Of a stretch of DNA of 64,000 nucleotides, positions 4,356 through 52,264 are shown one piece after another (within the stretch, counting starts at the first letter, position 1; each line of letters opens with the position of its first letter). The position numbers and the translations under genes are program-made. This stretch comes from Nanobdellota archaeon (GTDB lineage: Archaea > Nanobdellota > Nanobdellia > Pacearchaeales > GW2011-AR1): contig JBBSYC010000001.1 of NCBI GenBank assembly GCA_038045445.1, positions 35,140-99,139 on the forward strand. Reading direction: 5' to 3'. Below the pieces are notes generated by a model. That model had not been told where the DNA came from and ran no database searches. It saw nothing but the letters and a program-made list of their open reading frames with translations.

Positions 4356-4379
4356 AAACTAAATTTTTAACTCATTTGC

Positions 4380-6912: not shown

Positions 6913-6984
6913 CTCTCTTTTCTAACTCTGGCAGATTCATTAAATGGGTAGATTTAAAATACTCATTTTTACTTGGTTTAGTAA

Positions 6985-10303: not shown

Positions 10304-10332
10304 TGTCTGTTATTGAAGACAAGATTTAATAA

Positions 10333-11772: not shown

Positions 11773-11808
11773 TGAGATTATAGTTATTATTAAATAGGCT
11801 TATTTTAT

Positions 11809-12411
11809 TTGAATTTTATGGATGATAAAGTTGCTTTGTTTGATATGGATGGGACTATTGCTGATTATACATTACAAATGCGTAGAGACTTAGCTAGATT
11901 GGGTTCTGAGCAAATTCCTGAAAGATTGCACGGGGAAGAAATTCCTGATTGGTTAGAAGCTAGAAAAAATATTGTCAGCTCTCAAATTGGATGGTGGAGG
12001 AATTTACCCGTTATTTCTAGTGGTATTGAAATTTTAACTCTTTGTAAAGAGATTGGATTTGGGATTCATATTCTGACACAAGGTCCAAGAAGTAAGCCAT
12101 CTGCATGGGGAGAAAAACTTCAATGGTGTGAAGATAAAGTTCTTCCAATTGACCCCAATTATGGAATAACTGTGACTAGAAATGGGAAAGGTTTACATTA
12201 TGGAAGAGTTTTAGTTGATGATTGGCCCCCATTTATGGAAGCCTGGCTTAAACACCGTCCTCGCGGTTTAGGGTTAATGCCTGTTAGTCCTGAAAACGAA
12301 GGTTTTTCTCACCATCAAGTTATTCGTTATAATCCTGAAAATTGGAGAACTTCACAATTAGAACATAGTTTAATGAGAGTCTATAATCGTAATCCAAGAG
12401 AATCTGTTTAA
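11809..12411 (+). CDS. HAD-superfamily 5'(3')-deoxyribonucleotidase-like protein
   Basis: FDMDGTIADY HAD motif I; size and layout resemble the NT5C family. Confidence 0.5.
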   Translation: MNFMDDKVALFDMDGTIADYTLQMRRDLARLGSEQIPERLHGEEIPDWLEARKNIVSSQIGWWRNLPVISSGIEILTLCKEIGFGIHILTQGPRSKPSAWGEKLQWCEDKVLPIDPNYGITVTRNGKGLHYGRVLVDDWPPFMEAWLKHRPRGLGLMPVSPENEGFSHHQVIRYNPENWRTSQLEHSLMRVYNRNPRESV

Positions 12412-31268: not shown

Positions 31269-31970
31269 ATGAAAAAAATAGAATTGTTAAGAGTACTTGA
31301 GAAATATCCATTGTTTACATTTAACGAGTTTGTTAAAATTACTGGAAAGAGCATTAAATATTCTAGGACTTACATATATAGATTAAAAAAAGATAAACTA
31401 ATATTTGAAATTGAGAAGGGTAAATATACTCTTAAAGATAACCCTCTGATATTTGCCTCTTTTATAACTGCTCCTTCTTATATTAGTTTTTGGACTGCTT
31501 TGAGATTTTATAATGTTACTGATCAGCTTCCAAATGAGATAATGGTAGCTTCTAAAAGATCTAAAAAAGAGATAACTTTTCTGAATGCTAAAATAAAATT
31601 CTATAAAGTGAAATATTTATGGGGATATCGAAAAATTAGATACAATAATTTTGATATATTCATTGCAGAATTAGAGAAGAGCATTATTGATTCTGTTGCA
31701 TCTGGTCTGGTTCCTTTGAGCGAGATTGTAGATGTATTGATAAATGAAGAGATTAATACTCTAAAACTTAAGGAATTTGCGATTAAAACTGGAAGTAAAT
31801 CATTAATAAAAAGAATTGGATTCTTACTGGATAAAATCAAAGTTGATGCTGATGAAATGCTTAAGTATATTGACTATAATTATATAATATTAGATATTAA
31901 TAATAAAAGTAAAGGTGATAAAAATAAAAAATGGAGGATAATTGATAATTTGAGCTATGATTTCACTTGA
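31269..31970 (+). CDS. AbiEi-like antitoxin/transcriptional regulator (type IV TA / abortive infection)
   Basis: N-terminal wHTH (LEKYPLFTFNEFVKITGKSIKYSRTYIYRLKKDKLIFEIEKGKYTL). Overlaps the downstream nucleotidyltransferase gene by 14 nt. Confidence 0.55.
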   Translation: MKKIELLRVLEKYPLFTFNEFVKITGKSIKYSRTYIYRLKKDKLIFEIEKGKYTLKDNPLIFASFITAPSYISFWTALRFYNVTDQLPNEIMVASKRSKKEITFLNAKIKFYKVKYLWGYRKIRYNNFDIFIAELEKSIIDSVASGLVPLSEIVDVLINEEINTLKLKEFAIKTGSKSLIKRIGFLLDKIKVDADEMLKYIDYNYIILDINNKSKGDKNKKWRIIDNLSYDFT

Positions 31971-32727
31971 AGATTTAAGGAATATTGCTAGAGTAAAAAG
32001 CATTAGTAATATTGGGTATGCTGAGAAGGATTATTTGCTTGATTTGATACTTTTTTCAATCTCTAAGAATACAAAAGATGAACTTGTTTTCAAAGGAGGT
32101 ACTTGTCTTTACAAAATTTATAAAATTAACCGGTTTAGCGAAGATATAGATTTTAGTGCTGTTAAAGAGATTGATTTTAGAAGTTTAATTAACAAGATAA
32201 TTATTGATTTGCGTTTGTTTGGTATTGAGGCAACTACTAAAGAGAAAAAAGAGAGATATAATACTACCCTAATAGCTTTGCATGCTAAAGGTCCGCTTTA
32301 TAATGGAAATTCAAATTCTTTGTGCAATATAAGAATAGATATAAACACTAAGTCGGAGGTTAATTTTAAACCTGTTTTGCATAGATATAACTCTTTATAT
32401 TCAGAAATCTCTGAATATTCTCTTCTTGTTATGTCTAAAGAGGAGATTTTAGCTGAAAAGATAAGAGCAATTATTAACAGAGATAAAGCAAGAGATGTTT
32501 ATGATTTATGGTTTTTACTTGAAAATGGAGTAAAGATTGATAAGTCTCTGATTGAAAAGAAACTGGAATATTATGAAAAGATGTTTGATTATAGTGAGTT
32601 TATAAAAAGAATTAAAGATAAGAAAAAATTGTGGGGTGTTGAGATTGGACGGTTGATAATGGGACAAGTTCCTGATTTTAAGGTTGTAGAAGAAACTATT
32701 ATTAAGAAGACTATGGGATTGAAGTAA
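31957..32727 (+). CDS. AbiEii/AbiGii-family nucleotidyltransferase toxin (DUF1814)
   Basis: VFKGGTCLYKIY...RFSEDIDFS motif characteristic of AbiEii nucleotidyltransferases. Confidence 0.65.
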   Translation: MISLEDLRNIARVKSISNIGYAEKDYLLDLILFSISKNTKDELVFKGGTCLYKIYKINRFSEDIDFSAVKEIDFRSLINKIIIDLRLFGIEATTKEKKERYNTTLIALHAKGPLYNGNSNSLCNIRIDINTKSEVNFKPVLHRYNSLYSEISEYSLLVMSKEEILAEKIRAIINRDKARDVYDLWFLLENGVKIDKSLIEKKLEYYEKMFDYSEFIKRIKDKKKLWGVEIGRLIMGQVPDFKVVEETIIKKTMGLK

Positions 32728-33458: not shown

Positions 33459-33686
33459 ATGGAAAACATTAGTTTGAAATTGGAGATTGGATTTCTTCAT
33501 GCAATAGAGAAAGTAATGAAGAGGCATAATTATACGACTAAGACTGAATTTATTCGCGAGTCTATTCGCGATAAAATACGCAGACTTGAGGAAAAGGAAA
33601 TACTAGAAGATAAGGATATGATGTCTCAAATTAGAAGAAGTGAAAGAAATAGGAAAAAAGGCAAGACTTGGGAATCTAAGTATTAA
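33459..33686 (+). CDS. ribbon-helix-helix (CopG-like) small regulator
   Basis: FLHAIEKVMKRHNYTTKTEFIRESIRDKI RHH pattern. C-terminus EILEDKDMMSQIRRSERNRKKG is shared with a remnant at 34441. Confidence 0.5.
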   Translation: MENISLKLEIGFLHAIEKVMKRHNYTTKTEFIRESIRDKIRRLEEKEILEDKDMMSQIRRSERNRKKGKTWESKY

Positions 33687-34036
33687 TGCGAAAGAATCAT
33701 ACTCTTATTATAAGGAGAGATTATGCTAGTATTAATTTGATTTTGCACTCCTGATGCTGAAACTTCAAATGTTATTTGAGCCCAATTTCTTCCATATTGG
33801 ACACTAAAATTTCCCTTTAGCATCTTTGGTTTTTTAATTTCTTTTAGAAAGGGAAAGTATTCTGAAGCATTAAAAAACTCAAGACCAACTACAGAACCAT
33901 CAAAGCCATAATCTATGACTACATCTCCTTTTGGAAGCTCTAGATCAAAGCTAAATTTTGATTTATTGCCTTCGCTATGTAATGAGATAATGTCCTCATC
34001 TGAATCATAGCTTACTTTGAAAGATTTTTTCTCCAT
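33683..34036 (-). CDS. DUF2283-family small protein (putative antitoxin partner of DUF4258)
   Basis: SYDSDEDIISLHSEG...VVIDYGFDGSVVGLEFFNASE matches the DUF2283 pattern. Confidence 0.55.
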   Translation of the reverse strand: MEKKSFKVSYDSDEDIISLHSEGNKSKFSFDLELPKGDVVIDYGFDGSVVGLEFFNASEYFPFLKEIKKPKMLKGNFSVQYGRNWAQITFEVSASGVQNQINTSIISPYNKSMILSH

Positions 34037-34440: not shown

Positions 34441-34554
34441 ATGAAGAAAATGACTGAGGAAGAAGAGATACTTGCAGATAAGGATATGATGGAACAACTC
34501 AAAGAAAGCGAGAAAAATAGAAAAAAAGGTATTTCTTATAAGTTTGATTACTAA
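34441..34554 (+). pseudogene. C-terminal remnant of an RHH-gene paralogue
   Basis: 37-aa ORF MKKMTEEEEILADKDMMEQLKESEKNRKKGISYKFDY. It matches the tail of the 33459-33686 protein, shares a 16-nt identical core AGATAAGGATATGATG, and has no RHH N-terminal half. Confidence 0.3.
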
Positions 34555-34676
34555 TTTTTGTTTTTTGTTGCTTCTATTTCATTACTAAAACCTACTTTTT
34601 TATTACACACAATTATTTAAACTCAAACGAACTTTTCGTTTCAATTATTTGAAAGGAGGTATGAAAAAAAGAAAAA

Positions 34677-37930: not shown

Positions 37931-40105
37931 ATGAAAAGAGGATTTTTTTTAGTTGTATCTGTTGCTTTTGCTATTTTAGCTCTTTTTGTTTTATATCTTG
38001 ATGTTGCCAGAGATTGCGGTTCTCTTAGGTGTGTTGCGCGTTATGTTTCTACCGGAGAGAGTTTATCAGACTCTCAATTCCCTCCTAAAAAAATTCAGTT
38101 TTTTGACTCCAGTTCAGATTCTAATATTCTTAGTTTTGCTTTGAAGAAGACTATTTCTAAGATTATTTATCCTTTTGTGGAACATGAAGAGGTTTTGCTT
38201 CAGGCAGGTCTTGAGCCACCGGTTATAACTGGAATAGCTCCTCCTTCCTTTTCTAGTTCTTCCGATACAGATGTTTCAGTAATAGGACAGAATTTTGACC
38301 TTGATGCTTTGCTTTTAATCGGAGGAGATGTTATTGAGAGCTCTAGGCTGACTATAACCCCAACAGAAATATTATTTAGTTATATTGCCAATGAACTTCC
38401 TGCAGGAACTCATCAGGTCTCTGTTACAAACCCTTCTTCAGGACTTGTTTCGAATTCCTTTGGATTAACATTGACTACTAGCCCAGTTATAACTTCTCTA
38501 AGTCCACAAACTATAGTAAATAATGATAGTTATATTGTAAATATAAATGGAAACGACTTTAATCCTTTTGCAGTAGTTTTTGAAGGAATTATATTAGATA
38601 GTTCTTCTGGATTGTGGCAATATGTAAGCCCTAATTTGATTAGACTAAATATTCCTTCCGGTTTATCTGCGGGAGATTTTGATATTCAGATATATAATTT
38701 GGATGGTGCTCTGTCTAATATTATGGTTCTTAGGTCCAATTATCCATTTGTTTATTTCTTGAGTTCTTCTCCTTCTCCTGGAGATGTTTTGCCAGGTAGC
38801 TCTTTTGTTTTGGATGTTTCAATAAATAGTGTTGTTTTCACAGAACATGAAGAAGTTGTTTTAAGTTTGCAGACTCCTTTAGGAATTACTTCTAGTTTTG
38901 TTGGTTCAGACAGGTGTATTCCTAATATTCCTTCTACTGTCGTTCAAGGTATTGCTTATTGTAACCTTGCTGTTAATTTTGATGTTGGTTCTATTCCAAG
39001 TGGAAACTATAATCTCTCTATTAATTCGGTTTCTGCTTTGAATTCCGTGAAGGGTCAGATTAACTTTTCTTTGAATGTTATTCCTTTAGGTCAACCTGAT
39101 GGGGATTTGGATGAAGTCCCAGATTCTATTGATTTGTGTCCTAACACTCCTGCAAATGTAAAGACGACTTACGGAATTAATGTATTCAATGGATGTCCTA
39201 TTCCTAATATTTATCCAATGACTGCTTCGCTCACAACTGACTTCTCAAATGTTCCTAATCTATTTGCTGTCGAGAATTTGAGAATGGGCATTGCTGGAAA
39301 CTCTAGCGTTACTTTTAGGGCTCCCATTAGCATGTTATGGGTGAATACTACTGCAGTTCCTTCTCATCATTTGCCTATAGGTCTTGGAGAATGGGCAATT
39401 AACTTATCAGAGAATTATGTTTTCATTAATTCTACAAAGAGACCTATCTTTAATGTTTCTGCTGAAGTAACTTTCTTTGATACTGGACTTACTAATCCTG
39501 TTTTGTATAGAGATGGAGTTATTTGTGATTCAAGTAAATGTCATATTCTTTCTTTCGATACAATATCTGGAGATGTTGTAGCAAATGTTTCTGGGTTCTC
39601 TAGCTACTCTGTCTCTCAAGGTTCTTGTGGAGACTCTATGTGTTCTATTGCAGAGACTTGCTCTAGCTGTTCTGCTGATTGTGGTTCATGTCTAAATAAC
39701 GGTCCCCCTCCTAGTGGTTCTTCTGGTGGCGGTGGAGGCGGTGGGGGATCTAAGGGTAGTAAGGGTTCTTCTTCGATAGTTTATCGTGCAACTCCTCAGT
39801 GTAGCGATGGAGTGGATAATGATTTAGACTCTTTAGTTGACTATCCTAACGATTTAGGTTGTCTTAATACTAGTGATGATACTGAAGTGGATTCTAGTCC
39901 TCTTGTTGGAGATTCAGAGGGACAAGGAGAATCTTTAGATTCGTCTTCTTCTATAAAAGACAAAGATTATAGTATGGGGGTTGTATTTTGGATAGTCCTT
40001 GTTGTGCTTCTAGGAGGCATAACTCTTGTAATAGTAAGGATATTAAAGTATTCTCGTAATCGCAAAAAGTTTTCAGATCTTGCCGAGATGACTTCTAAAT
40101 CATAA
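37931..40105 (+). CDS. giant surface protein 1 (724 aa)
   Basis: N-terminal TM/signal, IPT/TIG-like domains, the shared cassette, then the C-terminal module described in the summary. Tail KYSRNRKK. Many N-x-S/T sequons. Confidence 0.7.
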   Translation: MKRGFFLVVSVAFAILALFVLYLDVARDCGSLRCVARYVSTGESLSDSQFPPKKIQFFDSSSDSNILSFALKKTISKIIYPFVEHEEVLLQAGLEPPVITGIAPPSFSSSSDTDVSVIGQNFDLDALLLIGGDVIESSRLTITPTEILFSYIANELPAGTHQVSVTNPSSGLVSNSFGLTLTTSPVITSLSPQTIVNNDSYIVNINGNDFNPFAVVFEGIILDSSSGLWQYVSPNLIRLNIPSGLSAGDFDIQIYNLDGALSNIMVLRSNYPFVYFLSSSPSPGDVLPGSSFVLDVSINSVVFTEHEEVVLSLQTPLGITSSFVGSDRCIPNIPSTVVQGIAYCNLAVNFDVGSIPSGNYNLSINSVSALNSVKGQINFSLNVIPLGQPDGDLDEVPDSIDLCPNTPANVKTTYGINVFNGCPIPNIYPMTASLTTDFSNVPNLFAVENLRMGIAGNSSVTFRAPISMLWVNTTAVPSHHLPIGLGEWAINLSENYVFINSTKRPIFNVSAEVTFFDTGLTNPVLYRDGVICDSSKCHILSFDTISGDVVANVSGFSSYSVSQGSCGDSMCSIAETCSSCSADCGSCLNNGPPPSGSSGGGGGGGGSKGSKGSSSIVYRATPQCSDGVDNDLDSLVDYPNDLGCLNTSDDTEVDSSPLVGDSEGQGESLDSSSSIKDKDYSMGVVFWIVLVVLLGGITLVIVRILKYSRNRKKFSDLAEMTSKS
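39121..39681 (+). repeat. copy A of a 561-bp near-identical cassette shared by giant genes 1 and 2
   Basis: Read directly; about 3 mismatches over 561 bp against 46345-46905. Encodes DSIDLCPNTPANV...SADCGSC. Confidence 0.85.
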
Positions 40106-40123
40106 ATCTTTATAAAGTCCTCT

Positions 40124-43100
40124 TTGCATTTTAGGACGATGAAAAGAGGTTTTTCTATTTTTGTTTTATTTGTTTCTCTCATTCTAATTCTTTCATTTTA
40201 TTTTGGAAATTTTTATGATTCTAATGAGACTATTAGCTCTGATTATTCTTGGCCTGCTTCAGTTTATCTGTTTCATGATTTAAATTTATTAAAATCTCCT
40301 AATATGGAGACTTTTTCTGGTTCCTCTTGCACCATTCTAGGTCTTTCTTGGGATAGGCAGAAGGCTAGGGCAGGAGATGATGTTAAATTACTTGTAAATA
40401 GCAAAGGTTGTGATGAGGGAACACATGTTCTTCTAACAATATCTGATTCTGATTTATTATCTGATGACACTCTTTCGTCTTATCGTTTACCTTTAGTTTA
40501 TGATGTTACTTCTGCAATATGGACAGTTCCTTCTTTTCCAGATGCATTTTCTGAATTTATGGAAGGAAAAGACATTGAGTTATATATTTCTGCAACTTTG
40601 GATACAGAGGATGTTTTTTCTACACTTGTTTATTCTCCTTCTAATTCATTAGATGTTAATGACCTTAATTTAGAAGATTATTCAATTCCTCTTCTTATTC
40701 CTCTTCAGGAATCTGATGGTATAGGAGATCCTATAACTGGAGATTTGTTGTCTCCAATTCTTTCTGTATCTGCTTCTGATTTAGAGGAAGACCCTCAAGT
40801 TCAATTGTCTGCAGTTTCTCTTGGGGAAAATCAAGTTTTCATAAAAAATGAAAATGTTTTTGCTGTGACTAATCATTTAGCTAGTGTTCCTATTTCTTTT
40901 CAACCTTGTGAATATTTTGATGGAGATAATAACATAAGGCTTAGAGATACTACGACCAATAATATTCTTACTACTCAAATTCAGTCTACGGGATATCATC
41001 AGAAAGATAGTGCCTCATGCACTAAAGGTTCTGTGATGTTTGCAGTTGCACATGTTAAAGTTAGTCTTGCTCCAGGAGAGGAAAGAATTTATGATATTAT
41101 TGAGTCTACTCAAGCAAACTCTCCGTTTGTTTATGCTCCAGAAGTTGATGATTTTGTTATAAGAGGAGCCATTCGGTCTGTTTCAACAGATATTTATGGA
41201 AGAGATTACGTTGCAGATATACCCTTTGCTGGTTTAGAGTGGGTCGTTAATGGAGATGTTGTTCGTATAGGAAAGTACACAAAAATGCATAGAATTGCGA
41301 ACCCTTCTTCATGCAACACTAATCAGCCTTGTTTGAGCTATTTGTTCTCTGTTGTTACTTATTTGACTTTTGTTAGCAATGAACCCATTGTTAGAACACA
41401 GGTTCTTGTTGTAAATGCGATGAACTTTGATGAACTTCAAACTCCGGACTGCTCTCAAACTCCTTGCGTTTATAGAAGGCTTGATAACAATCAACCTGAA
41501 TGGCAGAATGGAAATTTGAAGTATGGTTCTCTGCGATTTAATATAGATGGTTTTGCTAATCCGTTTTCATTTTATTTTCCAGATATGGATATAAGACAAC
41601 CTACTACAATATCCCAAGTAGATAATACTCATGCTACTGTTTGGACAATGCCTTCTGATGGGCAGTATACTTTAGGATGTATCTTAGGAAATACTGGAGG
41701 TTATTGTCCTCCAGAATTTGATAGAGAGAATAAGAATTATCTTGGAGAGGGTCAGAGTTTGCTTGTGGATGGAATTGTTAAGTTTGGGAGTTATAATACC
41801 CCTACATATACGACGCATAATTATTTTGCAGAGAATAAAATAGGTTCTGGACAATCACTTAAAAGATGGACTAAAGTAGACAGATTATTTGAATCTATGA
41901 TTCCAGATACTTCTAAATTAGGTGATTTGAGTAGATGGATATCTCCTGCAGATGCACAGAGCGAGTATGATTCTATTAGACCTTCTGCTTCAAATCAGAG
42001 GACTCATTTTGGGAATGCTCCTATTTATCAAACTAGGCTTACTGAAGCGAGCGAGAGTTTTCCGAGAGACTTTAGAGTGGATATGTATAGTAACCTTTGG
42101 GTAAAATATTTACTATCTTGTGCGGATAGATGTAATCCCAAATATCTTTATGCTCTTAGTTTTAAAAATAAACAGAGCACAATGTTTGTTGGACATCTTG
42201 TAGGTTATGAGCCTTGGGAACATCCCCTTGCTAACCCTTTAATTGATGATGGTACTGGGGGGATACCATTTAGTAGTTCTGCTGGTGCTGAAAGACTTTG
42301 TTATTCACAAAACCCATTTAGAACGACTTACAGAGATACTCTTGGTTTTTGTAATGTTCAGACTCCAAATGCTCACTTATATGATTATGGTGATTTGGGA
42401 ATTGGAGAGGGAAGAGCCCCCCATCATGAATGGAGTGCTTATGGAAGAACTCATTGGGGAACTAGCGAAGCAGAATATGTTTATGCTTCAGGAGACTTGA
42501 TGTTAAGAGATGTTTTCATGAGCACTGCAAAACTTCATGCTAATGTAATTCATCACTCTCCTGACTTGACTCTTACGAAACCAGCAAGTGGTCCTGCAAG
42601 GGGTATTGGGAGAGTTGCTGTCGGCGTTGAAAAAGCTGCGTTCATGACTAATCCATTGATTCAAAGTTATTATTCAGATTCTCTCAAGAGATGGCTTTCG
42701 AGAATTGATGAGAGATTAAATAAGCAGAATCCTGGAGATAGAGGATATAATCCTGTGACTGGAGATCCTTATGCGGTGGGACATTTGGGAATTGATGCTT
42801 GTAATGATGTCGTTTTCGGAAATGGAGAGCTTTGCGGAGAGCAGGTTTGGATGGAGGCTCTTGCTGCTCAAGGTTTAATGGAGATAAGACAGAATATTCT
42901 TGAAACAGGGACACAATATATTCAACTTATGGATACTATACTCTTTCATTTATCAAGATATCTTTTTGATTTCGGATATAAAGATCCTTCACAAGTCAAA
43001 AATAATTTTGTTATTTCCCATCCTATTACCGGACAGTCAATAACTGTTAATGAGGGTCTTGGATATCTGGCTTATTGGACTGCTCATGGGCCATCTCCAG

Positions 43101-46100
43101 GAGTGTCCGTTGTTACAACATATCCTCGATATAATTATGGCCCTGAAACTACAGACCATTGGCACATACCTAATGCTCTTTGTTTGCTTGCCAAGTTCTA
43201 TTCTCCAGATACTACGCGCCAGAACATAGCATTGAAATCTTTTGAGGCTTCATTTGGGTATAGAGGTTATACTTTGAAAGCTGAAAGCGGATCTCATAGG
43301 CTTAAGGATATTTTGCCTCCATCTCTTTCAGTAATCTCTGCGGACTTTTTATGCTCTTTGACACAGTTAAAAAATATTCCGACACCTAATGTAGTTAATC
43401 CTCCTGCGTGTCCTGACGCTGATGCTGACGGATATTCTACTTGTTTAGGAGATTGCAATGATGCAAATCCAAATATTCATCCTAATGTTCTTGAGAGTAG
43501 TGGTCTTTGCAGTGATTCAGTGGATAATAATTGCAATGGTCTACGAGATTGTGAGGATACGGGATGTTTTCTTTGTGGAGATAATACTGCTTGTTATTCT
43601 TCTCTTTATTGTAACTCTAATTCTATAGCTTATTGTGGAAATCTTGTAGTTAATAATCCAAATGCTGTTGGTCTTCAGGAAACTTGCGATGTCAATCCTG
43701 CTCCGCCTCAACTTATCTCTGTAAGAGGTAGTGGACAGAATTCTCTTGGTGACGGAAGATGTATCCCTCCAGGAACTTTACCTGCGCATGGACAAGCTTG
43801 TACTTATGCAATTGCGGCTACATGCGGAGATAATATGGTAAATCGACAATCAGAAGAATGTGATGGAACAGCTGTTGGGATATGCGGGCCTGCAACGTCA
43901 TGTTCTGCATCTTGTTTATGTAATGGTCCTGTATTGAATAGTATTTCTCCGAATAGTATAACTAACCCTACTCAAAATGTAGTTGTTACTGCTAGCGGAA
44001 GAGGTTTTGTTGCTACTCCCACTGTAAAGATTAATAATATTCCCCAGAGCAGTGTTCCTGTTTCTTTTGTTAATCAAAATTCTATTTCCTTGACTTTTAC
44101 GCCCGATTTTTTACAGATTCTTGGTTCTGGAACTCATCAATTAAGTCTTGTAAATCCAAATACTCAAGAGACAAGGAGTCTTTCTTTGACTACTACTATG
44201 AGCGGAGGATTATGTACTAACGCTTTGATGGTTGGTTCAGGAAAACCTTATGCTAAGCCAAGTGATGCTTTGGCAGTTGCTCAAGATGGAGATACAATAC
44301 TTATATTCCCTGGAACTTATCTTGATTATGCAACAATTACTCAAGATAATTTAATTATTAGAGGAGTAAGAGATGCCTCTGGAAACAGACCTAAAATTAC
44401 ATGGAATGGAAATGTGCCTAATGGAAAGGCTCTTTTTGTTTTAAGATCTCCACACATAGTTATAGATAATTTAGAGATGTATGGCGCCGAATCTTCAAGT
44501 GCTAACGGTGCTGCTTTGCGTGTTGAAAGTCCTGTTACTCAATTAACTGTAAGAAATAGTTATTTCCATGATAGTCAGATGCAAATTCTCCAAGATGAAG
44601 GAAACTTAGCATTTACGGCGCTTTTAGAGTATAATGAGTTCGATCATCAAGGAAGTTGTACTAATAATGATTTGAATCTTTGTTCACATTTGGTTTATAT
44701 TAATGGAGGAGCATCCGTGACTGTTCAGAATAATTATTTCCATCATGCGCGGAGAATGCATCATTTTAAGAGCAGAGCTGCACAAAACTTTGTTTTGTAT
44801 AATAGATTTACAGATGAAGAGACGGGACAATCTAATTACCATATAGACTTTCCACAAGGGGGAGATAATTATGTAATTGGAAACTTATTTCATCAAAACA
44901 TAAACACGAGAAATTCTAATATAATTGTAGTTAATACAGAGATTAATGATCCTTTGAAACCAGCACATACACTTCAGAACTTATATGTTGTCGCAAATAC
45001 TTTTGTAGATGATTTTGCAGGAGTTATGGTTTCTTCAGATTATAATACAAACATACGCACTCTAAATAACTTCGTTATAAGAAATAATATATTTATTACT
45101 TCTGCTTTGCAACAAAATGCTTTTGGAGGAAATCCTACTTTCGATTCAAACCTTTTGAGTACCATTGGTTCATTTACGTGGTTTAGAAATGTTTTAGGTT
45201 ATGATTATTCTCTTACAGGGGGTTTGTTAAACACCGGTTCTCCTTATGGTTCTAGTGTTACTGGTTATTCTTTGACTCCTTCTTATCAATATGTTCATAA
45301 TGCCAAACGTGAGACAAGGTCTGCTTCTGGGGCTCCAGATGTTGGAGCTTATGAGTTTTCAGGGGGAGGAGGAAATACTTGCTTCTCTTCTACTGAATTA
45401 TGCGACGGAATAGATAATAATTGTAATAGTCAGATTGATGAAGGAATAGTATGTACTTCTTGCAGTGGCGGACCTTCTGGACCAAGTATTGTTTCAGTTC
45501 AGCCTTATAACTTTTCTATAGCAAACAATACCTTAGTTGTAGTTACGGGGCAAAACTTTGCAAGTAACTCTGATATAAGAATAAATGGTCTTCCAGTTAG
45601 CACTATTAGAACATCTCTGACAGAATTACGTTGGAATTACATTGCTAATTCTTTGTTGGCTGGATTGAATACTTTAACAGTTTATAATCCTCCTACTGGT
45701 TTATCTTCAGGACCATTTTATCTGAATCTCACTTCTCCTCCTAATGCTCCTTCTAACTTTGTTGCAATTCCTCAGTCTTCTACAGTTATTTTGTTAACAT
45801 GGATAGATAATGCAAACAATGAAGATTATTTTGAAATGGAAAGAAGACCTCTTCCTTCAGGTACTTTTGCTATAATGCCTGGAGCTAGTCGTTTGAATCC
45901 AAATAGCAGAACTTATAACAACACTGGCCTTTCCGTTGGAGCAAGTTATGAATATCATGTTCGTGCAGTTAACTCTGCAGGAACTTCGGCTTGGTCTAAT
46001 TTGGCAAATGCGACAACTGCATCTAATCTTGTCCTTACTTCGTTGAATCCCAACTCAACAGTTAATGGTGCCTCTACAAATGTTCAGATGATAGGGACTG

Positions 46101-47356
46101 GATTCTCGACTATTAATTGTGGTATAGAGATTAACAGAATTCTTGCTAATTCTTCTCTTTATGGAATTAATTGTGTAAGTTCTACCAGAACGGACTTTGT
46201 TGTTCCCCCTGGATTATCTTTAGGGAATTATAGCTTGGTTGAAGTTACCTTGAATAATCTCGGAGGAGTTATTGCACGAAGCAATTCTTTAAACCTTACA
46301 GTAGTTAGTGGAAATGTTCCTGATGGAGATGGAGATGGAGTTCCAGATTCTATTGATTTGTGTCCTAATACTCCTGCAAATGTAAGGACGACTTATGGAA
46401 TTAATGTATTCAATGGATGTCCTATTCCTAATATTTATCCAATGACTGCTTCGCTCACAACTGACTTCTCAAATGTTCCTAATCTATTTGCTGTCGAGAA
46501 TTTGAGAATGGGCATTGCTGGAAACTCTAGCGTTACTTTTAGGGCTCCCATTAGCATGTTATGGGTGAATACTACTGCAGTTCCTTCTCATCATTTGCCT
46601 ATAGGTCTTGGAGAATGGGCAATTAACTTATCAGAGAATTATGTTTTCATTAATTCTACAAAGAGACCTATCTTTAATGTTTCTGCTGAAGTAACTTTCT
46701 TTGATACTGGACTTACTAATCCTGTTTTGTATAGAGATGGAGTTATTTGTGATTCAAGTAAATGTCATATTCTTTCTTTCGATACAATATCTGGAGATGT
46801 TGTAGCAAATGTTTCTGGGTTCTCTAGCTACTCTGTCTCTCAAGGTTCTTGTGGAGACTCTATGTGTTCTATTGCAGAGACTTGCTCTAGCTGTTCTGCT
46901 GATTGCGGCTCTTGTGGAGGAAGTAGTGGGGGTGGTTCTTCTGGAGGAGGTTCCGGTGGAGGTGGAGGAGGCGGAGGTTCTAGTGGTGGAGGTGGAAGAA
47001 CAAGTTCTGGACCAGTTATTAATCGTGTTGTTACTCAATGTAGTGATGGTCTTGACAATGATGGAGATGAATTAATAGATTATCCTAGAGATAGAGGGTG
47101 TTTGAATAACGAAGATGATGTTGAACTTGACTCAAGCAATCTTGTTACCGACTCTGAAGATAAAGAAAGGTTAGGAAATTCCGAAGAGAGTTTGGATAAA
47201 AATATAAGATTGGTGTTTTGGATTGTTCTTGCTACTCTTTTGATTGGAATCTCTATTGTTTTGATATTGATATTAAAATATTCGAGAAATCATAAAAGGA
47301 TTAATGCTCTTGCAAAAATGGTGTCTGCTAATGCTTTTGATTTAAAACATAGTTGA
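40124..47356 (+). CDS. giant surface protein 2 (2410 aa)
   Basis: N-terminal TM/signal. Cys-rich MopE/TSP3-like CxDxDxDG motifs (CPDADADGYSTCLGDCNDANP..., CDGIDNNCNSQIDEG). IPT domains. Right-handed beta-helix repeats (NSYFHDS..., VQNNYFHH...). An FN3-like domain. The shared cassette. Gly linker, QCSDGLDNDGDELIDYPRDRGC, TM, KYSRNHKR. Confidence 0.7.
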   Translation: MHFRTMKRGFSIFVLFVSLILILSFYFGNFYDSNETISSDYSWPASVYLFHDLNLLKSPNMETFSGSSCTILGLSWDRQKARAGDDVKLLVNSKGCDEGTHVLLTISDSDLLSDDTLSSYRLPLVYDVTSAIWTVPSFPDAFSEFMEGKDIELYISATLDTEDVFSTLVYSPSNSLDVNDLNLEDYSIPLLIPLQESDGIGDPITGDLLSPILSVSASDLEEDPQVQLSAVSLGENQVFIKNENVFAVTNHLASVPISFQPCEYFDGDNNIRLRDTTTNNILTTQIQSTGYHQKDSASCTKGSVMFAVAHVKVSLAPGEERIYDIIESTQANSPFVYAPEVDDFVIRGAIRSVSTDIYGRDYVADIPFAGLEWVVNGDVVRIGKYTKMHRIANPSSCNTNQPCLSYLFSVVTYLTFVSNEPIVRTQVLVVNAMNFDELQTPDCSQTPCVYRRLDNNQPEWQNGNLKYGSLRFNIDGFANPFSFYFPDMDIRQPTTISQVDNTHATVWTMPSDGQYTLGCILGNTGGYCPPEFDRENKNYLGEGQSLLVDGIVKFGSYNTPTYTTHNYFAENKIGSGQSLKRWTKVDRLFESMIPDTSKLGDLSRWISPADAQSEYDSIRPSASNQRTHFGNAPIYQTRLTEASESFPRDFRVDMYSNLWVKYLLSCADRCNPKYLYALSFKNKQSTMFVGHLVGYEPWEHPLANPLIDDGTGGIPFSSSAGAERLCYSQNPFRTTYRDTLGFCNVQTPNAHLYDYGDLGIGEGRAPHHEWSAYGRTHWGTSEAEYVYASGDLMLRDVFMSTAKLHANVIHHSPDLTLTKPASGPARGIGRVAVGVEKAAFMTNPLIQSYYSDSLKRWLSRIDERLNKQNPGDRGYNPVTGDPYAVGHLGIDACNDVVFGNGELCGEQVWMEALAAQGLMEIRQNILETGTQYIQLMDTILFHLSRYLFDFGYKDPSQVKNNFVISHPITGQSITVNEGLGYLAYWTAHGPSPGVSVVTTYPRYNYGPETTDHWHIPNALCLLAKFYSPDTTRQNIALKSFEASFGYRGYTLKAESGSHRLKDILPPSLSVISADFLCSLTQLKNIPTPNVVNPPACPDADADGYSTCLGDCNDANPNIHPNVLESSGLCSDSVDNNCNGLRDCEDTGCFLCGDNTACYSSLYCNSNSIAYCGNLVVNNPNAVGLQETCDVNPAPPQLISVRGSGQNSLGDGRCIPPGTLPAHGQACTYAIAATCGDNMVNRQSEECDGTAVGICGPATSCSASCLCNGPVLNSISPNSITNPTQNVVVTASGRGFVATPTVKINNIPQSSVPVSFVNQNSISLTFTPDFLQILGSGTHQLSLVNPNTQETRSLSLTTTMSGGLCTNALMVGSGKPYAKPSDALAVAQDGDTILIFPGTYLDYATITQDNLIIRGVRDASGNRPKITWNGNVPNGKALFVLRSPHIVIDNLEMYGAESSSANGAALRVESPVTQLTVRNSYFHDSQMQILQDEGNLAFTALLEYNEFDHQGSCTNNDLNLCSHLVYINGGASVTVQNNYFHHARRMHHFKSRAAQNFVLYNRFTDEETGQSNYHIDFPQGGDNYVIGNLFHQNINTRNSNIIVVNTEINDPLKPAHTLQNLYVVANTFVDDFAGVMVSSDYNTNIRTLNNFVIRNNIFITSALQQNAFGGNPTFDSNLLSTIGSFTWFRNVLGYDYSLTGGLLNTGSPYGSSVTGYSLTPSYQYVHNAKRETRSASGAPDVGAYEFSGGGGNTCFSSTELCDGIDNNCNSQIDEGIVCTSCSGGPSGPSIVSVQPYNFSIANNTLVVVTGQNFASNSDIRINGLPVSTIRTSLTELRWNYIANSLLAGLNTLTVYNPPTGLSSGPFYLNLTSPPNAPSNFVAIPQSSTVILLTWIDNANNEDYFEMERRPLPSGTFAIMPGASRLNPNSRTYNNTGLSVGASYEYHVRAVNSAGTSAWSNLANATTASNLVLTSLNPNSTVNGASTNVQMIGTGFSTINCGIEINRILANSSLYGINCVSSTRTDFVVPPGLSLGNYSLVEVTLNNLGGVIARSNSLNLTVVSGNVPDGDGDGVPDSIDLCPNTPANVRTTYGINVFNGCPIPNIYPMTASLTTDFSNVPNLFAVENLRMGIAGNSSVTFRAPISMLWVNTTAVPSHHLPIGLGEWAINLSENYVFINSTKRPIFNVSAEVTFFDTGLTNPVLYRDGVICDSSKCHILSFDTISGDVVANVSGFSSYSVSQGSCGDSMCSIAETCSSCSADCGSCGGSSGGGSSGGGSGGGGGGGGSSGGGGRTSSGPVINRVVTQCSDGLDNDGDELIDYPRDRGCLNNEDDVELDSSNLVTDSEDKERLGNSEESLDKNIRLVFWIVLATLLIGISIVLILILKYSRNHKRINALAKMVSANAFDLKHS
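46345..46905 (+). repeat. copy B of the 561-bp cassette (direct repeat, offset 7224 bp)
   Basis: Read directly; see copy A. Confidence 0.85.
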
Positions 47357-47380
47357 GGGATAATTTATATATCTTAAAGC

Positions 47381-50300
47381 TTGTTTTTGTTTATGAGAGT
47401 TAATTATTTTTGGTATTTGTTTTTTGTTTTAATTTTATCAATTATATTAATTACTTATTTTGTTAAGGTTAATAATCTTGAAGGCTCTTTTTCTACTCCT
47501 AGAGACGACGGAATCCTTGGATCTCTTGAAGATTCTGAAGGTCAGCTTTCTCCTCTTGGAGGTGATGAATCCTTTATAATCGAGAATACCTTAGCTCCTG
47601 CAGGTGCTTCTTTAGAGGGGACTAATGCTGTGGGTTTTGATTCTTCTAAAGGAGTTTACTATTTTGAATTTAGGGATTTTAATGATATTCTTTTAGATAG
47701 ATATGAAATAAATATTAGTAACTCCGAAGTTCAAAAAGGGATTTTAAAAATTAGGGAATCTCGAAGAAATTTCTTTCCAGTGGTTGATGGGGGGACTCTT
47801 TATAGGACCCCTTCAGGACAAATACTTCAACCAATTGATCTCGCATTAAAATCCCAGATTAACTCTTTTAATCATCAACAGACTTCTTTAAATAGTGTTC
47901 AATTTCAATATGATGAAACTGTTAGTTCTGAGACCGAAACCGTTTTACTTACAAAGCAGTATACGTTTTCCATTAAAGGGGGAACACTCATTATAGAGGT
48001 TAAACAAATTGATTCTCCTCTTACTCCTACATCGAATTATGCAGGATTTACTTTTGGTCAGGCGAATAATGTTGAGAATCCTCGAAATATATCAATACCT
48101 TATATGGAAATAGCACCCATAACTGTTGTAAATAACAGCTTCTTTTCTTCAACATATATTGATTGGTCTTTAAGCAATTCAAATTATTATCCTCAATTAG
48201 TTTGGTCTAATTCTAATTCTCCTGGAAATTTTAAAAATTCTTACTCTTCAAAATATGTTGCTCGTCAAAGTAATACATACAATAATATTGAAGAAACGGG
48301 ATATGTTTCAGTTAGTAATAATGTTGAGGATCTTATGATGGTTCCTCACAGACAGCCATCCCCTTATCGCAATCAATTGGACTCGAGACCAGTAATTTCT
48401 GTTTGGAATCTTTGGGGAAATTTTCAAACTTCGGAAGGAGTTCTTTCCTATTTTCATGATTCTCTAGGTATTGATAATCTGACTGTGATTTACAATAGAT
48501 GGAGTCAGAATTTCTGTGCTCCTCCCCATGATCTTCCTGCAGCAATGAATCTCGGCGGAAATGAGGCACTACTTAGGTTAGTAAATAAAGCTAAATCTTA
48601 TGGTTATTTATTTGCACTTTATGAAGTTTATTCAGATTTAAATCCTAGTAGTCCATTTTGGGAAAAAAATCAAGATAAAATCTCGCTTAATTCAAGTGGT
48701 GCGAGGCGTTTAGGGTGGTTTGCAGAAAGTTGCCCTTTTCCCCAAAACTATGATCTTTCGAGTGATAAGAGTTTGTTCTTTGCTCAAAATATTTCTCCTC
48801 AAATTAAAGAAACTTTTAATCCTAATGCGGTTTATACAGATGTAATTCCAAAACAATATATGACTAATGGTGGAATAGATTATTCTGCAACTAATTTAAA
48901 TTCTAGTTCTATTGGTGCTACTATGCAAAATGCTATGCATTTGTTTGATTTTCTTCATTCTAATTATAACTCTCCTCTTTTTGGAGAGGGTGGTCAAGTT
49001 CCAATTTCTCCAAGAGTAATGTATGGAGGTTTGGTTGATTCAATTGGAGGTGAAATTGTTGGTAGGGAATTTGCCCCCATATTACCAGATTATGAACTTA
49101 AAATTATAAAACCTTTAATGGCAAATCAGGGAATGGGTATGCCTCAAAGATGGGTTGGAGATGGGACAATACACCATGTCGGAGATTTGGACATAGCTAA
49201 TTTAGATTTGGATAAGTATAATTCAATGGCTATCTCTTATGGTCATACTGGGTATATAGACGAATTGTTGAGTCAAACAAATCCCCTTTATTATCTGTCC
49301 AAATATTATGTAACTGAATATTATTTATTTAGGGAAATTCAAGAGAGATATCTTTCTTCTCCAGTAATATCAGTTTTATATGAAAATTCTTCTGGAAATA
49401 TGATTGATCTTAATGAAGCTTTGCGCCAGAATCTAGATTTTAGTAAGACTAAATTAAGAACTTCTTATTCTAATGGTCTCGTGGTATATGTTAATCACGG
49501 TTCTTCTATTTGGGTAGTTACCCAAAGTGGGAAAACTTATTATCTACCATTAAATGGTTGGTTGGCTATTGCCCCAGATTTTATAGAGTATTCTGCTTTA
49601 GTAGACCAAAATGGTAATCCTTCGATTAGTGGACATAGGGCAGATTATATTTATTCCCCCAATTATCTTTTCGTGAATGGCCGCGGAGTTGAAACCTCGT
49701 TTGGAAATGATTATTTCAATAATCCTATAATTGCAACTAATATTTTAGTAATTAAACCTACTGGTTGGATAGTTCTTGAAACTTTAGACCCTAATATAGG
49801 GGGACAATTTGTTCCTTCGGTTTTTCATTTAGTTCCATCAATAAATAGGATAAATCCAGATAATGTTATTAATAATAAGGATAATTTAATTAGAGTTCAA
49901 GGACTTAATTTTACGTTTACTAATTTTTTAATGCTTAATGATATTCTCTTAGATGATAGCATTTATCAAGTTAATATTGTTAATTCTACAGATATAACTT
50001 TTGTTCTTCCATCTGGATTTTCGACCGGAGATTATAATTTAACTGTTATTCATCCAATTGGTCAAACTGGTAGTCTGACTAGTAATTCCTTAATTTTAAG
50101 GGTTGAATCTCCAAGTGGTACTGGCGGAAGCTCATCCGGTGGTGGTTCTTCCGGTGGTGGAGGCGGAGGAGGCTCTGGAGGTCCTGCAGTCGGAGGAGGT
50201 TTAATAACTCAATGTAACGATGGAGTCGATAACGACGGAGATTTGTTAATAGATTATCCAAATGATTTGGGGTGCAGTAGTTCTAATGACAATAGTGAAA

Positions 50301-50527
50301 TTGATTCTGAATTGATAATAGGATCTACTTCTGGTTCAAATTATACCTCTGGCAACTCAGGGGCTGTCGGAGGAAGGGATTCTGGAGAGAATATGAGCTT
50401 AATCTTTTGGGTTCTTCTTGTATCTCTTTCAATTGCTATAATTATTGTATTTGTTTTAATTATAAGACATTATAGGGCGCGTAAAAGAATAGATTCACTA
50501 ACAAGATTTTCTAATTACTCTAAGTAA
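47381..50527 (+). CDS. giant surface protein 3 (1048 aa)
   Basis: N-terminal TM, large uncharacterised ectodomain, IPT-like domain, the same C-terminal module. Tail RHYRARKR. Confidence 0.65.
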   Translation: MFLFMRVNYFWYLFFVLILSIILITYFVKVNNLEGSFSTPRDDGILGSLEDSEGQLSPLGGDESFIIENTLAPAGASLEGTNAVGFDSSKGVYYFEFRDFNDILLDRYEINISNSEVQKGILKIRESRRNFFPVVDGGTLYRTPSGQILQPIDLALKSQINSFNHQQTSLNSVQFQYDETVSSETETVLLTKQYTFSIKGGTLIIEVKQIDSPLTPTSNYAGFTFGQANNVENPRNISIPYMEIAPITVVNNSFFSSTYIDWSLSNSNYYPQLVWSNSNSPGNFKNSYSSKYVARQSNTYNNIEETGYVSVSNNVEDLMMVPHRQPSPYRNQLDSRPVISVWNLWGNFQTSEGVLSYFHDSLGIDNLTVIYNRWSQNFCAPPHDLPAAMNLGGNEALLRLVNKAKSYGYLFALYEVYSDLNPSSPFWEKNQDKISLNSSGARRLGWFAESCPFPQNYDLSSDKSLFFAQNISPQIKETFNPNAVYTDVIPKQYMTNGGIDYSATNLNSSSIGATMQNAMHLFDFLHSNYNSPLFGEGGQVPISPRVMYGGLVDSIGGEIVGREFAPILPDYELKIIKPLMANQGMGMPQRWVGDGTIHHVGDLDIANLDLDKYNSMAISYGHTGYIDELLSQTNPLYYLSKYYVTEYYLFREIQERYLSSPVISVLYENSSGNMIDLNEALRQNLDFSKTKLRTSYSNGLVVYVNHGSSIWVVTQSGKTYYLPLNGWLAIAPDFIEYSALVDQNGNPSISGHRADYIYSPNYLFVNGRGVETSFGNDYFNNPIIATNILVIKPTGWIVLETLDPNIGGQFVPSVFHLVPSINRINPDNVINNKDNLIRVQGLNFTFTNFLMLNDILLDDSIYQVNIVNSTDITFVLPSGFSTGDYNLTVIHPIGQTGSLTSNSLILRVESPSGTGGSSSGGGSSGGGGGGGSGGPAVGGGLITQCNDGVDNDGDLLIDYPNDLGCSSSNDNSEIDSELIIGSTSGSNYTSGNSGAVGGRDSGENMSLIFWVLLVSLSIAIIIVFVLIIRHYRARKRIDSLTRFSNYSK

Positions 50528-50540: not shown

Positions 50541-51635
50541 TTATTCTATTTGAAATCTTAATATTGCCCCTGCGCCCTTTGTGATATTGTAGAATTGTTC
50601 GCCTTCTTGCGTTTCATCTGAAATCATTATAACTTCAGAACCCATATCTATTGCCAATCTTTCTAGTTCTGCTACTTGCTTCTTCTCTAATTTTTCAGAT
50701 ATTAACAATTTGTGGACTGCTCCCCTTTCTAAAGCTACTTTTGTTTTTTCAATACCATATGCTGCTTTTTCAGGATATTTTCCCAAGGTCATGAAAAACT
50801 CTTCTATTATCTTTTTTTCCTTTATTATTTCTTGCTCTGCAATATCGCTTTGTGAGGCTTCTACTAAAAGTTTTAGTCCATGTTCATCTACATATCCTAT
50901 GTCTTTAACTGCTATGACTTTCTCTTTTAATTTTGTTACTAATTGACCTTCTTCTAAGAACTCTTCTTTTGTAGGTATTGGTCCACCTACAAGAATTCCT
51001 TTTAATCTAGGTAATTCAAAGAATAATTCTTTCATTGCTTCTGCAGTTCTTCTGAAAAATTCTTTTGCCAAACCTTCTGTTATTCTGTGAAAACGCTGAG
51101 AACTTTGACCTCCTGCCCTCACTTTGCTTGGAACTCCCGAAGTTAAATGTCTTAGAACTTTGATTTGTTTTCCTTCTAATAATCCTAGAGTTGCTTCCTG
51201 TCTATCTATTACTACAAGAGCATACACTTCGTCTGTTTGAAGCATGTCTTTTAATGGTTCCGTTACAAAAACTTGATCGCACCTATACATTCTGACTCTT
51301 AGGGGTTTTGGAGGTTCTATTGCCCATAATTTTATATCAGATACTCCTTCTTTTTCAGATATATTTCCAGCATATAAAGCAAGACCATTTTTTGGAGTTG
51401 CCTTCGTATTCTTTAGCGTTCTGATTATCATATCTATTGCATCGGTAACTGCACTTCTTGTTGCTTTAGATTTAATGTTATCTGCTGTTGAACGCTCTGA
51501 CTCTAATTGTTTTGTTACACTGTGAATATTGAAATCTACTGGAATGAGCACTGTGACTAATTCAGTATGTCTTCCTCTGACACTTTCCAATTCTTCAATT
51601 TGTTCTTCTAGTTGAAGTTTTTGTTTGTCGTTCAT
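50541..51635 (-). CDS. prf1: peptide chain release factor aRF1
   Basis: NIKS motif (TADNIKSK) and GGQ motif (RAGGQSSQRF). Confidence 0.9.
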   Translation of the reverse strand: MNDKQKLQLEEQIEELESVRGRHTELVTVLIPVDFNIHSVTKQLESERSTADNIKSKATRSAVTDAIDMIIRTLKNTKATPKNGLALYAGNISEKEGVSDIKLWAIEPPKPLRVRMYRCDQVFVTEPLKDMLQTDEVYALVVIDRQEATLGLLEGKQIKVLRHLTSGVPSKVRAGGQSSQRFHRITEGLAKEFFRRTAEAMKELFFELPRLKGILVGGPIPTKEEFLEEGQLVTKLKEKVIAVKDIGYVDEHGLKLLVEASQSDIAEQEIIKEKKIIEEFFMTLGKYPEKAAYGIEKTKVALERGAVHKLLISEKLEKKQVAELERLAIDMGSEVIMISDETQEGEQFYNITKGAGAILRFQIE

Positions 51636-52027
51636 GATGGTTTTATTCTCCTATACTTTCCTAGTTCGAGGATAGTTATAGAATTTATTAGATTATCTGG
51701 TTCTATTTCGTCTATAAGGCTTTTTAAGGTATTTGTTATTTGGATTCCAGTAAAAGAGTAAGGAAGCCTTATAATTATTAGACCATAATGGCTACTCTTG
51801 GAGTATCTTAATGGGTTGCCAAAATTCTTATCTTTTGTTATTAGTATAGCTTTTTTATTTTTAGCATATTCTGCAATCTTGCCATCTTCCTCTCCTTGTA
51901 ACTCTGTTAAACTAATATGTTCTACTTCAAAACCTTTGCTTTTTAGCATTTCTACCGAGGATTTAGGAACATTTTCATCTAAAACAAATTTACATTTATT
52001 TTTGTAGTTCTCTAACTTCTTCACCAT
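51632..52027 (-). CDS. DUF5615-family PIN-like putative toxin
   Basis: N-terminal KFVLDENVP...GFEV and KAILITKDKNFG match the DUF5615 pattern. Stop overlaps the aRF1 start (ATGA). Confidence 0.65.
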   Translation of the reverse strand: MVKKLENYKNKCKFVLDENVPKSSVEMLKSKGFEVEHISLTELQGEEDGKIAEYAKNKKAILITKDKNFGNPLRYSKSSHYGLIIIRLPYSFTGIQITNTLKSLIDEIEPDNLINSITILELGKYRRIKPS

Positions 52028-52214
52028 GTATTAAAGAAGCAATATATCTCAATACTATAAGAATATCTTCTTTTCTTAAATTATATTCTTTTTCTATTTC
52101 TTCATAAGTCATTCCTGAAGTAAGCATTCCAAGAACCTCTTCAACAGATATTCTTGTTCCTTCTATTATAGGTATTCCATGTCTTACTCTTTGATCTATT
52201 ATTATTTTTCTCAT
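51996..52214 (-). CDS. DUF433-family putative antitoxin
   Basis: GIPIIEGTRISVEEVLGMLTSGMTYEEIEKEY...EDILIVLRYIA matches DUF433. 32-nt overlap with DUF5615. Confidence 0.65.
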   Translation of the reverse strand: MRKIIIDQRVRHGIPIIEGTRISVEEVLGMLTSGMTYEEIEKEYNLRKEDILIVLRYIASLIHGEEVRELQK

Positions 52215-52264
52215 ATATCTTAATGAATTGAAGAGTTAATAAAAGTTGGGTTTCTTTAATTGCG

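Follow-up and report, generated by a model that had tools for sequence, protein, structure and literature searches.

We show that two adjacent surface-protein genes of a Nanobdellota archaeon, g1 and g2, carry near-identical copies of one protein-coding segment, the cassette, within sequence that otherwise diverged long ago. The genes lie in a 64,000-nucleotide stretch of contig JBBSYC010000001.1 (assembly GCA_038045445.1, positions 35,140 to 99,139 of the forward strand), which we call the window and to which all positions below refer unless a contig is named. Because the flanks of the cassette are old and diverged, and because the cassettes of a relative are only 41% identical to each other, the best explanation is recent gene conversion between old tandem paralogues, with the perfect identity of the cassette core made in part by the assembler; we give this reading a probability of roughly three in four. 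A preliminary description of the window had already proposed recent gene conversion between old paralogues, and the boundaries of the tract, the contrast in synonymous divergence and the outgroup locus all fit that proposal. The genes and the two copies are as follows.

37931–40105, forward strand: g1, 724 amino acids (aa), MEK6915009.1, 'IPT/TIG domain-containing protein [Nanoarchaeota archaeon]'
40139–47356, forward strand: g2, 2405 aa, MEK6915010.1, 'MopE-related protein'
47393–50527, forward strand: g3, 1044 aa, a third tandem paralogue with the same linker, MopE-like motif and transmembrane (TM) tail
about 39095–39691, forward strand: cassette copy A, in g1, made up of a transition zone (39095–39172) with nine mismatches to copy B and a core (39173–39681)
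about 46319–46915, forward strand: cassette copy B, in g2, 7224 bp downstream of copy A

A young tract within old paralogues

Pairwise alignment of 39121–39681 with 46345–46905 gives 561 columns without gaps and exactly three mismatches, namely synonymous C/T differences at 39145 and 39172 and an A/G difference at 39162 that exchanges Lys for Arg. The estimate of about three substitutions made by eye holds under computation, and the identity as assembled is no lower than claimed. The copies form a direct repeat with an offset of 7224 bp in both a diagonal scan and a repeat finder; along this diagonal, similarity starts near 39095 and stops near 39690, and the 509 bp from 39173 to 39681 are 100% identical to copy B, with a sharp loss of identity after 39681. 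In both genes the cassette encodes, in frame, the peptide DSIDLCPNT...SADC(GSC) with six N-x-S/T sequons, in agreement with the domain end SADCGSC and the sequon count reported earlier; the name 'giant gene 1' was mistaken, as g1 has only 724 aa against the 2405 of g2. Neither the repeat finder nor a hidden Markov model (HMM) of the cassette family located a third copy in the 64 kb of the window, and the repeat finder returned neither other long repeats nor inverted repeats there. Chance origin of a match of such length is ruled out. Purifying selection was rejected as the cause of the identity, since synonymous sites are identical too.

The contrast with the flanks is steep. By the method of Nei and Gojobori, synonymous divergence (dS) between the copies is 0.039, or 0.072 if five variants hidden by assembly (see below) are counted as copy differences. 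Over the 100–300 codons upstream of the cassette, dS between g1 and g2 is 1.2–1.6, with 34% aa identity, and in the tails it is 1.5–2.6 or saturated, with 55% aa identity between g1 and g2 and 40–43% to g3. The surroundings had been described as highly divergent, which is right for the saturated flanks but does not make the genes unrelated, their tails being homologous. At its 3′ end, the tract stops four codons short of where the domain ends: C-G-S-C is kept in the protein and written with three synonymous differences (39682–39691 in g1), as TGT GGT TCA TGT in g1 and TGC GGC TCT TGT in g2. The 5′ boundary lies inside a PDGDxDxVPDS motif of the TSP3 type, and mismatches thin out gradually there over 78 nucleotides (nt). 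The diverged C-G-S-C codons and the TSP3 motif indicate that g1 and g2 already had both domain ends, and therefore that the segment was replaced rather than inserted.

In the history that we propose, both genes would have held the cassette module since long ago, and some 510–590 bp of one copy would recently have been overwritten by the other, in either direction, in this lineage. The event would be a non-reciprocal homologous replacement between direct paralogues 7.2 kb apart, and would have left a patch of low dS (about 0.04–0.07) within saturated flanks. The competing possibility is that one gene lacked the module and recently gained it by insertion or duplication through illegitimate recombination, as in domain shuffling. 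Such an origin could draw on the rough match between the tract and one structural module, on the adjoining low-complexity, GGN-rich linker, which is able to mediate illegitimate joins, and on the g3 tail, which exists without the module. However, the tract leaves out the last four domain codons, whose synonymous sites diverged long ago, the 5′ TSP3 motif is likewise old in both genes, and the module is already present in g1-like and g2-like proteins elsewhere and in both adjacent genes of a syntenic relative; we consider recent insertion very unlikely.

In distant relatives, the g1-like protein P0021 (42% identity over aa 107–722) and the g2-like protein P0025 (48% identity over core aa 222–1438) carry the module at the same position. 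The syntenic relative GCA_964423055.1 (contig CAYRCZ010000003.1), whose eRF1 and leucyl-tRNA synthetase (LeuRS) are 90% and 80% identical in aa to those of the window, has two adjacent cassette-bearing genes upstream of eRF1; the comparison is one of locus synteny, and gene-by-gene orthology of the cassette genes is not established. Its two cassettes are only 41% identical in aa and mutually undetectable by blastn, and its tails are 53% identical in aa (69% in nt). It follows that homogenisation is lineage-specific and recent and not a property of the family as a whole. The closest relative of the cassette outside the locus is at most 70% identical and lies on the contig of another organism; a related-locus search of GTDB genomes with a single protein yielded no confirmed locus. 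Between the two syntenic genomes, housekeeping neighbours are 80–90% identical in aa and surface proteins 35–46%, the latter also differing in number and length, so surface genes at this locus turn over far faster than the housekeeping genes that flank them. The interval upstream of eRF1 (1–6955 of the locus on CAYRCZ010000003.1, compared with 37931–50527 of the window) has the look of a hotspot of surface-gene turnover.

Short-read assembly of the repeat

The window derives from a DPANN ('Nanoarchaeota') archaeon of Hainich groundwater. Assemblies from there, such as Hain_H52_01um_R2_21 (145,770 bp), encode the exact g1 and g2 proteins, as does the GenBank metagenome-assembled genome (MAG; MEK6915009/10), and at least five independent long contigs hold both genes intact. 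According to a paper that does not state the library insert size (PMC8672522), metaSPAdes 3.13 was run on every filter replicate independently. Illumina inserts from a separate Hainich H52 sampling were about 214–234 bp, which the 509-bp core exceeds. The default top k of metaSPAdes is 55. Compared with the window over 22 kb, one long contig from H52 R2 differs only at 39235, 39241 and 39244, and another from H52 R1 only at 39301 and 39307, each difference being mirrored at +7224. These variable sites, and the contigs and interval needed to interpret them, are listed here.

39235 A/G, 39241 C/T, 39244 C/T, 39301 C/G (N457K) and 39307 C/T, forward strand: five assembly-variable sites, at 46459–46531 in copy B
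Hain_H51_01um_R3_24 (L004): contig with one cassette, left flank g1, alleles A-C-C / C-C
Hain_H52_02um_R1_33575 (L006): contig with one cassette, left flank g2, alleles G-T-T / G-T
39682–46905, forward strand: 7224-bp loop, made up of the g1 tail, the N-terminal 2260 aa of g2 and copy B, and missing from L004

Across five assemblies, all five variable sites are third codon positions and four are synonymous, the fifth (N457K) removing a sequon, and wherever an assembly has two copies, a change in one is matched in the other. The probability that two independent variant clusters would both land in the core is about 0.002. Mutagenesis of the diversity-generating retroelement (DGR) type was rejected as their source, the sites not being adenine-specific. 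Their spacing relative to k is telling. The copy-specific differences that are retained (39103...39172) each lie less than 55 nt from the next, and the first erased cluster lies 63 nt beyond them and the second 57 nt further on, leaving shared stretches of 62 and 56 nt, each at least 55. The final 55 nt of a contig from H51_02um_R3 are exactly the first shared 55-mer: they occur at two places in the window, and the final 56 nt at one, which corroborates k = 55. The single-copy contigs L004 and L006 are each haplotype-pure and in phase with their own left flank.

We propose that at k = 55 the copies would merge in the de Bruijn graph at 39173, where the five third-position differences would become popped bubbles, and that one arbitrary allele would then be written into both genes; copy A would in truth carry A-C-C/C-C and copy B G-T-T/G-T. 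The five sites are thus probably real differences between the copies that were erased by assembly, and the true difference would be 8 in 561 (98.6% identity, dS 0.07). A different view of the same sites is strain-level concerted evolution, in which the copies are identical within each genome and the five sites mark co-existing strains, each homogenised. Repeated conversion within strains would indeed give the same alleles in both copies, as every two-copy assembly has them. Nevertheless, in about 21.6 kb of flanking sequence the assemblies differ by no other single-nucleotide polymorphism (SNP), haplotypes form a mosaic among replicates taken from one well, perfect identity begins exactly where shared 55-mers begin, and each single-copy contig agrees in phase with the flank on its left. 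All four observations are expected from the popping of copy-specific bubbles, and we regard homogenised strains as an unlikely source of the pattern.

The same repeat has also been joined wrongly. Contig L004 (138,546 bp) is exactly 7224 bp shorter than the intact contig and otherwise identical to the window over 22 kb. It contains a hybrid gene of 733 aa (10001–12202 of the L004 locus; MGYP001558217534 in MGnify) composed of the N-terminus of g1, one cassette and the tail of g2, equivalent to window 37931–39681 joined to 46906–47356, and its breakpoint falls somewhere inside the identical core. Contig L006 (1–2107; 5x coverage) has the reciprocal join, running from the upstream flank of g2 through the cassette into the g1 tail, and carries all the alternative alleles; its G>T change at 39629 was rejected as a real variant because it makes a stop codon in a contig of 5x coverage. 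In a further contig of low coverage, Hain_H52_02um_R1_89051, an inverted copy of window 47017–47124 is joined to forward sequence at 538–645, a hairpin-type assembly chimera in the g2 tail.

Could the repeat itself be a product of assembly, the cassette belonging to one gene only and having been wrongly written into the other? Assemblers demonstrably mishandle it, but copy-specific SNPs are chained to each left flank, there are two distinct right junctions, and both genes would otherwise miss a module that their homologues possess. In addition, Logan contigs built at k = 31 from three runs start exactly 30 nt (k−1) inside the 3′ end of the repeat, which means that both right-hand junctions are present in the reads and that the cassette is truly in two genes. 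Contig ends lying k−1 and k bases inside the repeat mark branch nodes in the read graphs, with both contexts present, and they come from independent graphs made by two assemblers. We therefore attach almost no credence to a purely artefactual repeat.

A further question is whether the joins in L004 and L006 record real, ongoing recombination between the direct repeats, which would yield a deletion plus a circle or duplication, and with it presence/absence variation of the 2405-aa protein. Both reciprocal junctions were observed, about 560 bp of direct repeat is enough for homologous recombination to act on, and L004 falls short by exactly 7224 bp. Yet the junctions also correspond to the only two ways in which a collapsed repeat can be walked wrongly, and the core is probably longer than the insert, to judge from the 214–234 bp of the separate H52 sampling; a core exceeding the library insert would let assemblers mis-thread the repeat, giving both the 7224-bp collapse and the reciprocal join. 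Moreover, the 0.2-µm fraction of the well and replicate that gave L004 (H51 R3) yields a contig breaking off at the first shared 55-mer, implying that the g2-side junction exists there, L006 combines 5x coverage with an internal stop, and the deletion appears in only one of about seven long contigs. Given the graph branch in the H51 0.2-µm fraction and the rarity of the deletion, we favour misjoining, and the L004 hybrid is probably a loop skipped by the assembler; real recombination at this repeat seems to us rather unlikely.

Some points nevertheless count against the history proposed here. The cassettes that preceded the event may have been too diverged (about 41% aa identity in the relative) for classical homologous recombination; conversion may have required short conserved anchors, for instance the TSP3 motif or the Cys-knot together with the GGN run; alternatively, the paralogues may have resembled each other more closely in this lineage. 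That the five variable sites distinguish copies, and not strains, is deduced from assemblies. Finally, the shortened contig L004 may reflect a real deletion polymorphism in well H51.

For users of these data, the warning that the repeat is an assembly hazard proved well founded, as public assemblies contain the 7224-bp collapse, the reciprocal misjoin and repeats whose two copies only ever change in step. The two genes are fused into a 733-aa hybrid in at least one deposited contig, and both the public assemblies and the GenBank MAG carry a repeat that is probably in part a consensus of two copies, making per-gene SNP or strain analysis misleading here. The event behind the repeat is of an ordinary kind, and it gives DPANN archaea a clean and dated case of conversion between paralogous surface-protein genes. 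More interesting is a by-product, the identity of the domain that the repeat encodes.

The cassette domain and its predicted cleavage site

The cassette module, about 190 aa long, consists of a TSP3-like Ca-binding motif, an autoproteolytic beta-sandwich of the Nup98/ZU5/GAIN type and a six-cysteine knot. The earlier account of the cassette had not seen this fold. A word-indexed homologue search found one match with the cassette and 11 with a family alignment, several of them OmpA TSP3 proteins. By exhaustive search, 737 cluster representatives match the cassette at E ≤ 1e-3, typically at 30–45% identity, and the named members of the family come from Nanoarchaeota and Aenigmatarchaeota MAGs. 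The domain is always membrane-proximal in TM-anchored proteins, which range from 300 to 6400 aa, typically ending about 135–250 residues before the C-terminus, and its knot follows the pattern CGDxxCxxxExCxxCxxDCGxC. The family is mostly unannotated in the databases consulted.

The assignment of the fold draws on profiles and on a structural model. When the core of a family profile built from a 31-sequence alignment was compared with the PDB, it matched Nup116 (E 9.6e-4) and Nup98 (E 7.7e-3) at about 16–18% sequence identity, and the family string 'PHFSxYS' aligned on the HF↓SKY cleavage site of Nup98. PF04096 (Nup98-96 autopeptidase S59) matches 23 of the 31 homologues, with a best E of 4.2e-8, and is annotated on two relatives. 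An AF2 model of the cassette (pLDDT 94.6) predicts the half-open beta-sandwich fold of the Nup98 autoproteolytic domain. For the TSP3 motif, DxDxDGxxDxxDxCP, the match of the window cassette to PF02412 (E 0.05) falls below the cut-off and is the sole Pfam match of the cassette alone; 26 of the 31 homologues match this model (best E 5e-5), and the N-terminus of the family profile matches the TSP3 repeats of the OmpA-family protein 5wtl at E 1.8e-7. The upstream cassette gene of the syntenic relative has a MopE-type motif in the place of the TSP3 motif, ahead of the autoproteolytic-fold domain.

The alignment with Nup98 also suggests where the domain might be cut.

39587–39595, forward strand: predicted scissile motif G553-F554-S555 of g1, aligned with Nup98 HF↓S; at 46811–46819 in copy B

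In the AF2 model, G-F-S is predicted to lie in a turn between the last two strands (159–164 and 169–174). Across 189 domains, the putative scissile site has S or T at P1′ in 98% and F, W or Y at P-1 in 97%, and at P-2 it has G in 50%, H in 22% and S in 21%. The cassette is probably a membrane-proximal stalk and may cleave itself at G-F↓S, which would leave the ectodomain attached non-covalently to a membrane stub. A bolder extension is that the module is a working self-cleaving one, an archaeal, extracellular and membrane-proximal counterpart of Nup98, GAIN and ZU5 found in hundreds of DPANN surface proteins and cutting at [G/H/S]-F↓[S/T], with the direct repeats possibly recombining too; we entertain this as a possibility that is more doubtful than probable. 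Two points count against the reading of the domain given here: the window cassette has Gly at P-2 of the putative cleavage site, not the His of Nup98, and it has no PF04096 match of its own at E ≤ 0.1.

In that bolder case, large enzyme or adhesin ectodomains would stay non-covalently attached to a membrane stub, the nucleoporin S59 domain would have its closest sequence relatives among prokaryotes in DPANN archaea, and the homogenisation of g1 and g2 could reflect selection for a common stalk or partner; recombining repeats would, in turn, give loss and gain of the 2405-aa protein. If the cassette cleaves, the biology of autoproteolytic stalks would extend to archaeal episymbionts and would bear on the prokaryotic roots of the nucleoporin domain. 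Zhang et al. (2012, PMC3482391) had already united ZU5, GPS and the Nup98 autoproteolytic domain, and they noted ZU5-type autopeptidases among the large surface proteins of bacteria. The literature searched contained no archaeal, membrane-proximal, DPANN-wide version of the domain, and nothing specific beyond that study.

Heavy N-glycosylation of the cassette had been suggested on the basis of its sequons. All six are present, but they are not a significant enrichment, as composition-preserving shuffles give an expectation of 3.2 ± 1.5 (P = 0.07), and only one of them is conserved across the family.

The locus and its place among known systems

All three tandem genes encode C-terminally membrane-anchored surface proteins. 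g1 begins with an N-terminal signal or TM segment followed by IPT/TIG domains (Pfam TIG match, E 1.8e-11), the cassette (aa 390–587) and a Gly/Ser linker, and ends in a MopE-like QCxDGxDND...GC motif, an acidic stretch, a TM helix and a basic tail. g2 has a large uncharacterised core, then MopE motifs, fn3 and TIG domains, the cassette (aa 2062–2259), a linker, a MopE-like motif and the TM tail; its core (aa 201–1800) has neither a PDB sequence match nor a Pfam match. The family HMM found no cassette in g3. A weak but significant match (E 1.7e-6) of g3 aa 344–423 to 3,6-anhydro-D-galactosidase and to a 'conserved periplasmic protein' (PDB 5opq, 8rzg) hints that g3 could be a surface-anchored glycoside hydrolase. 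The common ending of g1, g2 and g3 comprises the Gly/Ser linker, QCxDGxDNDxDxxxDYPxDxGC, an acidic stretch, a TM helix and a basic tail of the KYSRN type, and no PGF-CTERM-like signal occurs in any of the three tails. Within it lies a 68-nt repeat (39794–39861, 47033–47100 and 50207–50274) whose copies are 69–75% identical in nt. Whole tails are about 59–65% identical in nt pairwise, and the tail module is old.

The neighbours are archaeal housekeeping genes, among them GatD/GatE, deoxyhypusine synthase, eRF1, Sec61-beta, aminoacyl-tRNA synthetases and FtsZ. The gap between eRF1 and LeuRS (about 51630–52230) holds a PIN_10/DUF5615 and DUF433 gene pair, probably a toxin-antitoxin system, plus two tiny open reading frames (ORFs); this region is missing in the syntenic relative, where eRF1 directly adjoins LeuRS. 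At 31269–32727 lies a gene for an AbiEii-family nucleotidyltransferase toxin, with a 14-nt overlap with an upstream 233-aa ORF that has no Pfam match and may be an AbiEi-like partner. A 101-nt direct repeat of 71% identity (33587–33687 and 34455–34555) links the 3′ end of a 75-aa ORF to a 37-aa ORF; the two ORFs flank a DUF2283 gene pair, and the arrangement suggests that a small gene was partly duplicated.

The preliminary description took the shared cassette for a hallmark of antigenic or adhesive variation, and tandem surface-protein genes sharing a near-identical segment are indeed what programmed variation by cassette exchange would display. The locus is otherwise unlike such a system. 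The window has two copies only, both in intact genes, and contains no silent donor cassettes; the neighbouring genes include no recombinase, invertase, integrase or DGR reverse transcriptase; the five third-position changes, four of them silent, are not mosaic diversity; and the relative's locus is not homogenised but shows ordinary divergence. Programmed variation is, in our judgement, barely credible here. The pilE/pilS, vlsE and VSG systems draw on an archive of donor cassettes, of which the window has none, and generate mosaic non-synonymous diversity, in contrast to the four synonymous changes among the five variable sites.

With respect to the domain, the Nup98/Nup145N/Nup116 version (S59, PF04096) belongs to nucleoporins, whereas the cassette is extracellular, membrane-proximal and part of archaeal surface proteins, and has a TSP3-like motif before it and a six-Cys knot after it. 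Compared with the GAIN/GPS region of adhesion G protein-coupled receptors, the cassette lacks the helical GAIN subdomain A and is followed by a single C-terminal TM helix instead of seven. Compared with GPS, ZU5 and FIIND, its sequence signal points to PF04096 and not to the GPS or ZU5 models.

With respect to the repeat, the locus differs from known conversion systems in consisting of a single tract in two expressed genes of a DPANN archaeon, with neither a donor archive nor evidence of recurrence. It resembles known gene conversion between tandem surface-protein paralogues in its bounded patch of near identity, about 0.5 kb long and ending in homologous coding sequence, and in the divergence of the same paralogues in an outgroup. 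It also resembles the known collapsed-repeat errors of short-read de Bruijn assembly, which share its co-varying copies, the onset of identity at shared k-mers, contig breaks k or k−1 bases into the repeat, a loop-skipping contig and a reciprocal chimera. Unlike a pure collapse, however, the repeat described here is real, and only the last 1% or so of its identity and some of its joins are probably artefactual.

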